A DNA stretch of 64,000 nucleotides from sequence record MT764206.1. One strand, written 5' to 3'. Of this stretch, positions 26,915-29,024 are shown piece after piece; the first letter of the stretch is position 1, and the number at the start of each line of letters is the position of its first letter. The notes under the pieces were generated by a model. It saw only the letters and a list, made by a program, of their open reading frames with translations, had not been told where the DNA came from and ran no database searches. The position numbers and the translations under genes are program-made. The stretch is from Escherichia phage JEP6.

Positions 26915-27096
26915 AAGGAATTTATATAATCAATAAGTTCTTGTTCTTTATTATCGAATTCTTTAGAAAGTTCTTCGTACTCGTTTGCACTAAAAGGACC
27001 GCATTCATTACAAACTTTTTCCAATTCACTATTTTTATCCATAACTTCGTGGATAAGAGAAAAGAGTTTGTCTTTTTGTTCTTTGCTTAGGCTCAT
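26911..27096 (-). CDS. hypothetical small protein (small-protein family)
   Basis: 61 aa; MSLSKEQKDKLFSL. Confidence 0.45.
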   Translation of the reverse strand: MSLSKEQKDKLFSLIHEVMDKNSELEKVCNECGPFSANEYEELSKEFDNKEQELIDYINSL

Positions 27097-27266
27097 ATAT
27101 TAATTTCCAGAAGTTTTAAAATAATTCGCTTTTGCTTAAATATTTCCATAGTTAAATGATCAGTATCTTTTTGGCCAATTCCAATGGCAAAACCTTTATT
27201 AGCAGCGAGTTCAATTAAATTATCAAGTTCACGTGACACTTCATATTGTAACTCAGAACTATTCAT
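27093..27266 (-). CDS. hypothetical small protein (57 aa)
   Basis: below track cutoff; ATGA overlaps at both ends with flanking ORFs. Confidence 0.35.
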   Translation of the reverse strand: MNSSELQYEVSRELDNLIELAANKGFAIGIGQKDTDHLTMEIFKQKRIILKLLEINI

Positions 27267-27475
27267 TTCGGTTTACCTTCTTTAACGAAATCTGGATAAG
27301 GATAAAATCCCGAATAAAATCCTTCACCTTTATGATTGATGCATCCTTTATTAGAACAATAGCACCAATAATCGAAATCACAAGCCATTTCATCGTTGCA
27401 TAAAGCAAAAACAACTGGCCATTTACACTTTTCACAATGGGCATTTTTAAGAATACTAGTTTGGCTCATAACCAT
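27263..27475 (-). CDS. hypothetical Cys-rich (probable zinc-binding) small protein
   Basis: 70 aa; CEKCKW...C...C...C...CYC...GC pattern. Confidence 0.45.
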   Translation of the reverse strand: MVMSQTSILKNAHCEKCKWPVVFALCNDEMACDFDYWCYCSNKGCINHKGEGFYSGFYPYPDFVKEGKPK

Positions 27476-27693
27476 GTAACCTTTAAGCAGTATTCTTCTA
27501 CATGCTGTTTACGACCTTTCTTATCAATAAAGGTATATTCAACGAATGTTCCAATGTAGTCTTTATCTACATCATGCGGACTATTAATTGGACATTTAGT
27601 ACGGCAAATGCGTTCCCATTGACGAATAATTACTGCCTTATTCTTTGGGTCATATGGATGTGGATAATGTATATTCATAATAATGGTTCCCAA
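27466..27693 (-). CDS. hypothetical protein
   Basis: ORF track 75 aa. Confidence 0.45.
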   Translation of the reverse strand: MGTIIMNIHYPHPYDPKNKAVIIRQWERICRTKCPINSPHDVDKDYIGTFVEYTFIDKKGRKQHVEEYCLKVTWL

Positions 27694-28142
27694 TCAACAA
27701 TCACAATTTCTAATTTAGAGGAATATGTATCTAAAATCCCCTCAATAATATCCCAGTTCCCTTTACCTATGCCTGCACCAATCCTAGGCATATAGATTGT
27801 AGGTTTAATCAGTTTATTTTCACCAAACTCATTTAATTCTAACATACAATTCATTAAAGCGAAATACTCAAAATTTGGCCCTGGTTGAAATTGAGTATAA
27901 AGATTAAAGCAGTAAGCTTTATGAGTCCTAAAGTATTTTTCATAGACTGAATAAGAACCAAGTTTAGTTACATCACCCCATTCAGTCTGTAGTTTATCAG
28001 CTTCCAGAATTTTAGGGAAAGCTTTGGTTAATTGACCTGCGACTCCAGCTTTCATCGTATGAAAACAATTGCATCCATGCGCAATATTTTTACCTTCAGC
28101 GAAAAGGGCGACAATATCGCCCTTGATATATTTTACAATCAT
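27675..28142 (-). CDS. macro-domain-like protein (possible ADP-ribose binding/hydrolase)
   Basis: 155 aa; GDIV...IAHGCNC...MKAGVAGQL resembles macro-domain core motifs (GDIT...NAAN...GGGV); assignment tentative. Confidence 0.45.
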   Translation of the reverse strand: MIVKYIKGDIVALFAEGKNIAHGCNCFHTMKAGVAGQLTKAFPKILEADKLQTEWGDVTKLGSYSVYEKYFRTHKAYCFNLYTQFQPGPNFEYFALMNCMLELNEFGENKLIKPTIYMPRIGAGIGKGNWDIIEGILDTYSSKLEIVIVDWEPLL

Positions 28143-28486
28143 TTAGTACTCAATCCTCGATTATAAGAATCTACCAAACGGTCAACCATTGAATGACAAG
28201 CGGCTTTATCTTTCTCCTCCGCAACTGAACATTCTAAGGTATTCCACTTTTTAGCATATCGTTTTAATAATGTATCGTTTTTGTATCTGCTTGATTTATC
28301 TCTTTCTCCATCTTTATATGCATATATTAATTTCTGCGCAAATTCAGCTTGGCACGCTTTATTTTTCCCACAATAATCTGCCGCAGTGCGGTTTACATAT
28401 TCTCTAATTTCAGTATATGATGTATCTGCTGACGCAGAAGCAGAAAATGAAATTAATCCTATACATAAAACCAAAATTTTAGTCAT
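28139..28486 (-). CDS. hypothetical secreted protein (signal peptide, 4 Cys)
   Basis: 115 aa; N-terminal signal peptide MTKILVLCIGLISFSASASA. Confidence 0.5.
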   Translation of the reverse strand: MTKILVLCIGLISFSASASADTSYTEIREYVNRTAADYCGKNKACQAEFAQKLIYAYKDGERDKSSRYKNDTLLKRYAKKWNTLECSVAEEKDKAACHSMVDRLVDSYNRGLSTK

Positions 28487-28652
28487 TTACTATTTCCAAA
28501 AGTTTATTATTTTTAAGGTAATTAGCCTTTTCTAGGACTTCAGAAGCATATTTAGAACCAGCTTTAACATTCCATCCTGAATTATAAGAGGATATTGCTT
28601 TTCTTATATCGCCCTTATGTATATTTAACCAATAAGAAAGTTCAATGTACGC

Positions 28653-29024
28653 TCAGGAAGCTGAATTGGATCGTTTATTCAACATTCTTTTTATTTCAGC
28701 ATCGGTCATATTATAACCAAGTTCCTTAACTCTTGCTCGCATAGTAGGCAAATAATTTTGGAACATTCCGTAGGCGTGATGCTTTGGTTTAGATTTTAAA
28801 TTAACTCCGCCAGAGCTTTCTTGCCATAAAATAGCAGCCATTATATGACCTAATCCGCTCTTGTGGATATTTTTGTGTGTTTTATATTTTCCATCCTTAG
28901 AAAATTGTTCCCCGAATTGATACGCGTAACGCATGTTATCGAGTTGGACATTACTGAAAGTATGCTCGGAGCTATGTGCCATCATTGAAATGGCCAATAG
29001 ACCAGCGAGTAGTGCTTTTCTCAT
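28653..29024 (-). CDS. SLT-like lytic transglycosylase domain protein with signal peptide, terminated by an in-frame TGA; frame stays open a further 56 codons to 28479
   Basis: 123 aa to the TGA; ES (ILWQESSGG) and GMFQ motifs before the stop, YNSG motif after it in the same frame; extended frame ends in coupling overlap with next gene. Confidence 0.55.
   Translation of the reverse strand: MRKALLAGLLAISMMAHSSEHTFSNVQLDNMRYAYQFGEQFSKDGKYKTHKNIHKSGLGHIMAAILWQESSGGVNLKSKPKHHAYGMFQNYLPTMRARVKELGYNMTDAEIKRMLNKRSNSAS

Follow-up and report, generated by a model that had tools for sequence, protein, structure and literature searches.

What does a small stand-alone macrodomain do for a T-even phage, and by what chemistry does it do it? 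The question is raised by a minus-strand gene in a 64,000-nt stretch of DNA from Escherichia phage JEP6 (MT764206.1; the whole stretch is referred to here as the window). An earlier note, written from the sequence alone, had placed a macro-domain-like protein of 155 aa at positions 27675-28142. The ATG-initiated ORF is there on the minus strand, and the segments that had been quoted as resembling a macro-domain core all occur in its translation: GDIV (residues 8-11), IAHGCNC (20-26), and MKAGVAGQL (30-38). The gene is tk.4, since renamed adfM, and the window is that of a Tequatrovirus. Its product, Tk.4, is identical to T4 Tk.4 (NP_049723) at 152 of 155 residues (98%), with no difference in length, and is 100% identical to a protein of Salmonella phage SG1. 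At the DNA level, tk.4 matches 647 phage records, with an identity of 99.1% for SG1 and of ~98.7-98.9% for T6, RB51, RB68, HY03, and wV7.

The gene lies in a co-oriented array, regB-vs.1-vs-tk.4-tk.3-...-tk, and is annotated as tk.4 in RB51, T4, T6, and SG1. Its slot between vs and tk.3 is kept in these four phages and also in Mosigvirus SSE1, Tequatrovirus CM8, and Krischvirus RB49. Position within the regB-vs-tk block fits the description of this part of the genome as an “early region”; scans for promoters, terminators, and MotA boxes around tk.4 gave chance-level counts (21 found vs 23.3 expected; 20 vs 14.4). Both ends of the gene overlap a neighbor (Table 1). The vs-tk.4 overlap, annotated with the same layout in T4, T6, RB51, and SG1, suggests that translation of the two genes is coupled on one transcript. 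Pairwise dN/dS for tk.4 is 0.05-0.10 (window, T4, T6, RB51, and Mosigvirus SSE1; pairs with unsaturated dS), meaning that the reading frame is under strong purifying selection. These values, together with the 647 DNA matches and with homologs found by tblastn in 2721 of 50,697 phage records, indicate that tk.4 is more than a chance ORF. Two antisense ORFs on the plus strand, at 27502..27795 and 28032..28166, are dismissed as spurious, since it is the minus-strand frame of tk.4 that is under selection.

Table 1. Position of tk.4 and of its sequence features in the window.
Feature	Position	Strand	Description
tk.4 / adfM CDS	27675..28142	-	155 aa, ATG start, TGA stop; single macrodomain, no second domain
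ATGA 4-nt overlap, vs stop / tk.4 start	28139..28142	-	Seen in sequence and ORF coordinates
ATGA 4-nt overlap, tk.4 stop / tk.3 start	27675..27678	-	Seen in sequence; same overlap annotated in RB51, T4, T6
Residues 22-36, HGCNCFHTMKAGVAG	28035..28079	-	H-x-C-N motif, then phosphate-binding loop 1
Residues 80-84, NLYTQ	27891..27905	-	Gln84 at the position of TARG1 K84 / DarG K80 / SCO6735 Gln85
Residues 119-130, PRIGAGIGKGNW	27753..27788	-	Diphosphate-binding loop 2; Gly126 at the position of TARG1 Asp125

Two other features of the array are worth recording. First, vs.1 (about 28479..29024, minus strand) carries a TGG-to-TGA nonsense change at 28653-28655 (W124*) relative to T4 and T6, such that the ORF encodes 123 aa in the window vs 181 aa; in SG1, whose record is otherwise the closest one at tk.4, the annotated vs.1 is full-length. 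The change may mark a true pseudogene, but it may also be a mutation particular to this strain or an error of sequencing. Second, the interval between tk.2 and tk.3 (window 27093-27475) contains two small minus-strand ORFs, of 57 aa and 70 aa. They correspond to RB32ORF110c and RB32ORF111c of RB51, T6, and SG1, and are missing from the T4 annotation of the interval. The 70-aa product is Cys-rich.

How much is already known about tk.4? Both the macrodomain and an anti-DarTG2 role in T4 are. The A1pp/macro domain of tk.4 orthologs was reported in 2006 (PMC1524935), and the T4 RefSeq note for tk.4 carries it. More recently, in T4 transposon mutagenesis by HIDEN-SEQ, only tk.4 came out as depleted on DarTG2-expressing hosts (bioRxiv 10.1101/2025.11.20.689424, 2025 preprint). 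A clean T4 tk.4 knockout was sensitized to DarTG2, and the gene was renamed adfM, for anti-DarT factor Macrodomain (10.1101/2025.11.20.689424). Removal of ADP-ribose from DNA was proposed for T4 Tk.4 because it resembles M. tuberculosis DarG in structure (10.1101/2025.11.20.689424). Judged by orthology to T4 tk.4 (98% identity, kept synteny), the AdfM functional label appears to fit the window gene as well; the genetic support for the window protein comes from the T4 allele (G31-S32) and from a preprint. No enzymatic assay of Tk.4 itself was found in the literature searched, and many records still name the gene product “phosphatase” or “hypothetical protein.” What is new here is the placement of Tk.4 in a subfamily, and the distinction of its active site from the DarG/TARG1 type.

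To which class of macrodomains does Tk.4 belong? Taken alone, the match to Pfam Macro (PF01661) is marginal, with 22.9 bits where the cut-off is 22, an E of 8.7e-5, and 111 of the 118 profile positions covered; PHROG 335 (“phosphatase”) matches at 5e-64. The single Tk.4 sequence matches the PDB macrodomains BT1257, Poa1p, TARG1, and DarG. A family profile built from 65 homologs matches 28 PDB macrodomain sequences, including BT1257 (1e-18, the best), SCO6735 (4.8e-15), Poa1p (7e-15), TARG1 (8e-15), and Mtb DarG (1.2e-12); the match to coronavirus Mac1 is about 2e-3. SCO6735, Poa1p, and TARG1 all score 58-59 bits, so that none of the three stands out by sequence as the nearest relative. An AlphaFold2 model based on the alignment of the 65 homologs has a pLDDT of 94.6 and a pTM of 0.90, and a Foldseek search with this model places TARG1 first (8e-10), then Poa1p (8e-9), followed by DarG, BT1257, and SCO6735. 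In the predicted structure, a three-layer alpha/beta/alpha macro fold is confirmed. Hence, the macro-domain likeness claimed in the earlier note is borne out by profile searches (Pfam Macro at 22.9 vs 22 bits; family profile against PDB sequences at E 1e-18 to 1e-10), and the structure search finds the same fold. Because of the profile E-values, the AlphaFold2 model, and the Foldseek ranking, Tk.4 is assigned to the ALC1-like class as a stand-alone macrodomain, alongside TARG1, DarG, Poa1p, and SCO6735. In both structure and sequence, it is nearer to this class than to the MacroD, PARG, macroH2A, or viral Mac1 types.

Members of the ALC1-like class differ at the position of Tk.4 Gln84. Human TARG1/OARD1 (PDB 4J5R), which also cleaves thymidine-linked ADP-ribose (PMC12879935), has a Lys84/Asp125 dyad. 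In the HMM alignment, Tk.4 Gln84 and Gly126 are paired with Lys84 and Asp125 of TARG1, respectively, ruling out the TARG1 dyad in Tk.4; most Tk.4 homologs have Ala at the Gly126 position. DarG (DarG2; PDB 5M31, 5M3E, 5M3I, 7OMU) has a catalytic lysine, K80, within FPTKKHW, where Tk.4 has Gln84. A glutamine at this position is found also in BT1257 and SCO6735, within an NMIGQ segment of the HMM alignment. This segment was misplaced by MAFFT when run on the mixed set of sequences, and the Gln84 column was therefore read from a HMMER profile alignment. The active site of Tk.4 is thus of the Gln type, as in SCO6735 and BT1257, rather than of the Lys type, as in DarG and TARG1.

The rest of the pocket is strongly conserved. 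N80, Y82, and Q84 are invariant among the 65 homologs, as are G23, C24, N25, C26, G33, and A35. H22, N25, and Q84 align with H24, N27, and Q85 of SCO6735 (PDB 5E3B), and N25 also aligns with N23 of PhiKZ AdfM. Phosphate-binding loop 1 is present and conserved as M-x-x-G-V-A-G at residues 30-36. Loop 2, with the pattern P-R-I-G-A-G-I-G-K-G at residues 119-128, aligns with IGCGLDRLQW of TARG1; within it, P119 and G124 are invariant and I121, G122, G127, G128, and W130 nearly so (65 homologs). With both Gly-rich loops conserved, Tk.4 is predicted to bind ADP-ribose through them. The match to SCO6735 is not complete. Val25, of which only the backbone is invoked in SCO6735, is Gly23 in Tk.4, and C-N-D is replaced by C-N-C. 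The loop after Gln84 is shorter than in SCO6735 and does not include the SCO6735 Lys89, and the residue aligned with SCO6735 Lys34 is not a Lys. Bacteroides BT1257 (2AFC/2FG1) is only 26-29% identical to Tk.4. Unlike BT1257 and Streptomyces coelicolor SCO6735, Tk.4 is encoded by a phage and most likely has a counter-defense role.

What would an active site of this kind do during infection? Since Tk.4 does not have the catalytic lysine of DarG and TARG1, its chemistry should be modeled on SCO6735. SCO6735 takes thymidine-linked ADP-ribose off DNA and rescues cells from DarT (PMC9411070; PMC12879935). Activity is lost in the Q85A mutant and almost lost in N27S and K34E; the mechanism put forward involves a backbone-held water, with the Gln positioning the distal ribose (PMC9411070). 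We consider it probable that Tk.4/AdfM, as an ALC1-like macrodomain of the Gln type, removes from phage ssDNA the thymidine ADP-ribosylation made by DarT2, and that its main job is most likely counter-defense. Specifically, the host DarT2 toxin would ADP-ribosylate thymidines in single-stranded phage DNA; the macro pocket of Tk.4 would take up the ADP-ribose, and the bond between base and ribose would then be hydrolyzed; the unmodified DNA restored in this way would allow replication to continue. By analogy with SCO6735, we infer that Tk.4 is a hydrolase of thymidine-linked ADP-ribose with a Gln-type mechanism, in which the invariant Gln84, held by Asn25, may position the distal ribose and a backbone-held water may start cleavage. 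Other nucleic acid linkages have been described for this group of enzymes. For example, uracil-linked ADP-ribose is removed from RNA by TARG1-like enzymes, including SCO6735 (PMC13036486), and SCO6735 is inactive on 2'-OH RNA ADP-ribose (PMC11833690). For 5'-phosphate-linked ADP-ribose, SCO6735 is described as inactive in the results and as active on RNA phosphate ends in the discussion of the same paper (PMC11833690).

Protection by Tk.4 need not be purely enzymatic, because SCO6735 Q85A inhibits DarT without catalysis (PMC9411070). Indeed, the catalytically dead mutants SCO6735 Q85A, DarG K80A, and TARG1 K84A all inhibit DarT in vitro, SCO6735 most strongly (PMC9411070), and the anti-DarT factors AdfA and AdfB also act by inhibiting DarT directly (PMC13309987, introduction). 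Tk.4 could similarly protect mainly without catalysis, by direct binding and inhibition of DarT2 or by sequestering NAD-derived ligands or ADP-ribosylated DNA; hydrolysis would then contribute little. We regard this as unlikely. Conservation in the Tk.4 family falls on residues that position the catalytic site and the pocket for ADP-ribose (N25, Q84, and the two Gly-rich loops) and not on a surface patch, and the 155-aa protein does not have the second, DarT-binding domain of DarG. Moreover, the family is widespread in phages and in bacteria, with no DarT found near 80 bacterial loci in searches of limited sensitivity, which is a better fit to an eraser that acts independently of the toxin than to a protein that binds one particular toxin.

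Could the “phosphatase” label be correct instead? Tk.4 would then be an ADP-ribose-1''-phosphate phosphatase like yeast Poa1p (6LFQ), clearing the by-product of 2'-phosphotransferase RNA repair. Poa1p is ALC1-like, as is Tk.4, and of the Poa1p residues probed by deposited mutants (H23, S30, and F152), H23 aligns with H22 of Tk.4 and S30 with T29. Poa1p has a Ser at the Gln84 position and a ~20-residue insertion, and Tk.4 has Gly126 where chain 6lfu, labeled as the F152A mutant, shows Ala. The historical “phosphatase” or “A1pp motif” label of the databases derives from domain naming (smart00506 A1pp; PMC1524935) rather than from assay results. The sole recorded phenotype, sensitivity to DarTG2, would not be explained by an Appr1p phosphatase activity, making this a very unlikely function for Tk.4.

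Alternatively, Tk.4 could reverse or tune the ADP-ribosylation carried out by the phage's own enzymes, Alt, ModA, and ModB, on proteins or as RNA-linked marks. Macrodomains are not known to act on arginine-linked ADP-ribose. T-even phages do encode three ADP-ribosyltransferases (PMC8120803), SCO6735 also removes Glu/Asp-linked ADP-ribose from protein (PMC9411070), and the protein- and RNA-linked activities of SCO6735/TARG1-like enzymes imply a broad substrate range in the class; even so, a role of this kind is highly improbable, given that Alt, ModA, and ModB modify arginine (PMC8120803), that tk.4 was conditionally important in HIDEN-SEQ only on DarTG2 hosts (10.1101/2025.11.20.689424), and that gene order around the locus shows no linkage of tk.4 with alt, modA, or modB. 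The earlier note had suggested a “regulatory or anti-defence hydrolase.” The anti-defense part of this suggestion agrees with the sensitivity of the T4 tk.4 knockout to DarTG2 (10.1101/2025.11.20.689424), and nothing was found pointing to the other part, reversal of Alt, ModA, or ModB marks, which are on arginine (PMC8120803).

If Tk.4 erases the marks made by DarT2, is it simply a DarG that has been picked up by a phage? DarG has a second, DarT-binding domain and is encoded adjacent to darT; Tk.4 has neither, and the neighbors of its gene are vs and tk.3. Tk.4 scores 23 bits against NCBIfam NF048014, which has a cut-off of 250, and matches only profile positions 2-146 of 338; the PADLOC DarG profile is matched only over positions 2-145 of 329. 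Membership of Tk.4 in DarG is rejected because the match is to the macro half only, there is no catalytic lysine, and there is no adjacent darT. A different situation is found for PhiKZ gp104, which is also named AdfM and which, like T4 Tk.4, is a stand-alone phage macrodomain that protects against DarTG2. PhiKZ gp104 takes DarT2-made ADP-ribose off DNA in vitro, and an N23A substitution reduces this removal (Cell Rep 2026, PMC13309987). It is imported into the phage nucleus. PhiKZ gp104 is DarG-like, with an E of 9e-25 to Mtb DarG and with the Lys motif FPTK(K/D)(H/N)W, as in DarG; against Tk.4, BLASTP gives an E of 0.019 over 23 residues only. From these comparisons, the two proteins named AdfM, T-even Tk.4 and PhiKZ gp104, belong to different macrodomain subfamilies and are only remotely related.

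The window protein differs from T4 Tk.4 by three substitutions, G31K, S32A, and S94F, with all invariant family residues kept. The K31-A32 allele is common to the window, T6, and RB51, whereas T4 has G31-S32; F94 is found also in SG1. Position 31 (codon 28050-28052) lies in the phosphate-binding loop and is Gly in 54 of 65 homologs, whereas the window has Lys, one residue ahead of the position of SCO6735 Lys34, a residue that SCO6735 requires to act on DNA (PMC9411070). We assume that the K31-A32 allele is equivalent in function to the G31-S32 allele of T4. The G31K change in loop 1 (T6, RB51, and the window) might tune nucleic-acid binding. More distant alleles occupy the same slot elsewhere. 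Mosigvirus SSE1 tk.4 is 84% identical to the T4/T6 allele, and CM8, Ec_MI-02, pSs-1, and other Tequatroviruses have, between vs and tk.3, an allele that is ~57% identical to it (Shigella phage CM8 tk.4, at L004:1501-1980, was compared with window 27675-28142). The divergent CM8-type alleles point to allelic replacement by recombination at an anti-defense locus.

How widespread is the family? The phages with Tk.4 homologs include those of Escherichia, Klebsiella, Salmonella, Pseudomonas, Vibrio, Acinetobacter, Aeromonas, and other hosts. In a scan of one genome per species, at least 495 bacterial loci encode relatives of Tk.4. Among the best 80 of these loci, most of the encoding ORFs span 140-180 aa, and the three motifs are retained in 76 of 79. 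No DarT2 match better than E 2 was found within 4 kb either side of the best 80 loci, using tblastn with one query (P. aeruginosa DarT2), a search of limited sensitivity. Similarly, DarT is absent from the top 25 of 160 Pfam families represented among 146 neighboring ORFs (crude ORF calls), and the neighbors are heterogeneous. This suggests that the bacterial relatives are not antitoxins but stand-alone enzymes with a “guard” role, as for SCO6735.

Some individual loci stand out. The best “bacterial” relative (38% identity) is on contig JBOFGC010000414.1 (L008:344-1492) of a MAG classified as “Bacilli bacterium,” where it adjoins a T4-type RNA ligase 1 gene; this contig is probably phage DNA that was binned into the MAG. 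Within the set of best loci (L008-L087), a few genes of the family are beside NAD-salvage genes (NAPRTase, 3 neighbors; NAMPT_N, 2 neighbors), and others are beside AAA_21/AbiEii-type ATPases (9 neighbors) or Exo_endo_phos nucleases (7 neighbors). Neighbors of these types may hint at NAD/ADP-ribose conflict islands.

What are the implications of assigning Tk.4 to the Gln type? First, the result can be used to correct the annotation of the tk.4 records labeled “phosphatase” or “hypothetical protein.” Second, a single name, AdfM, is now shared across two macrodomain lineages, a point of naming and of mechanism that is worth passing on. Third, there is about an even chance that a broader picture holds. 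T-even AdfM would not be a captured DarG antitoxin, but would instead belong to a separate and very widespread clade of Gln-type macrodomains that stand alone (found at 495 loci or more in representative bacterial genomes and in ~5% of phage records). Members of this clade would remove ADP-ribose linked to thymidine, and perhaps to uracil, with no need of a catalytic lysine. Anti-DarTG2 activity would then have arisen in phages at least twice, out of distinct macrodomain lineages, one of the Tk.4 type and one of the PhiKZ gp104 type.
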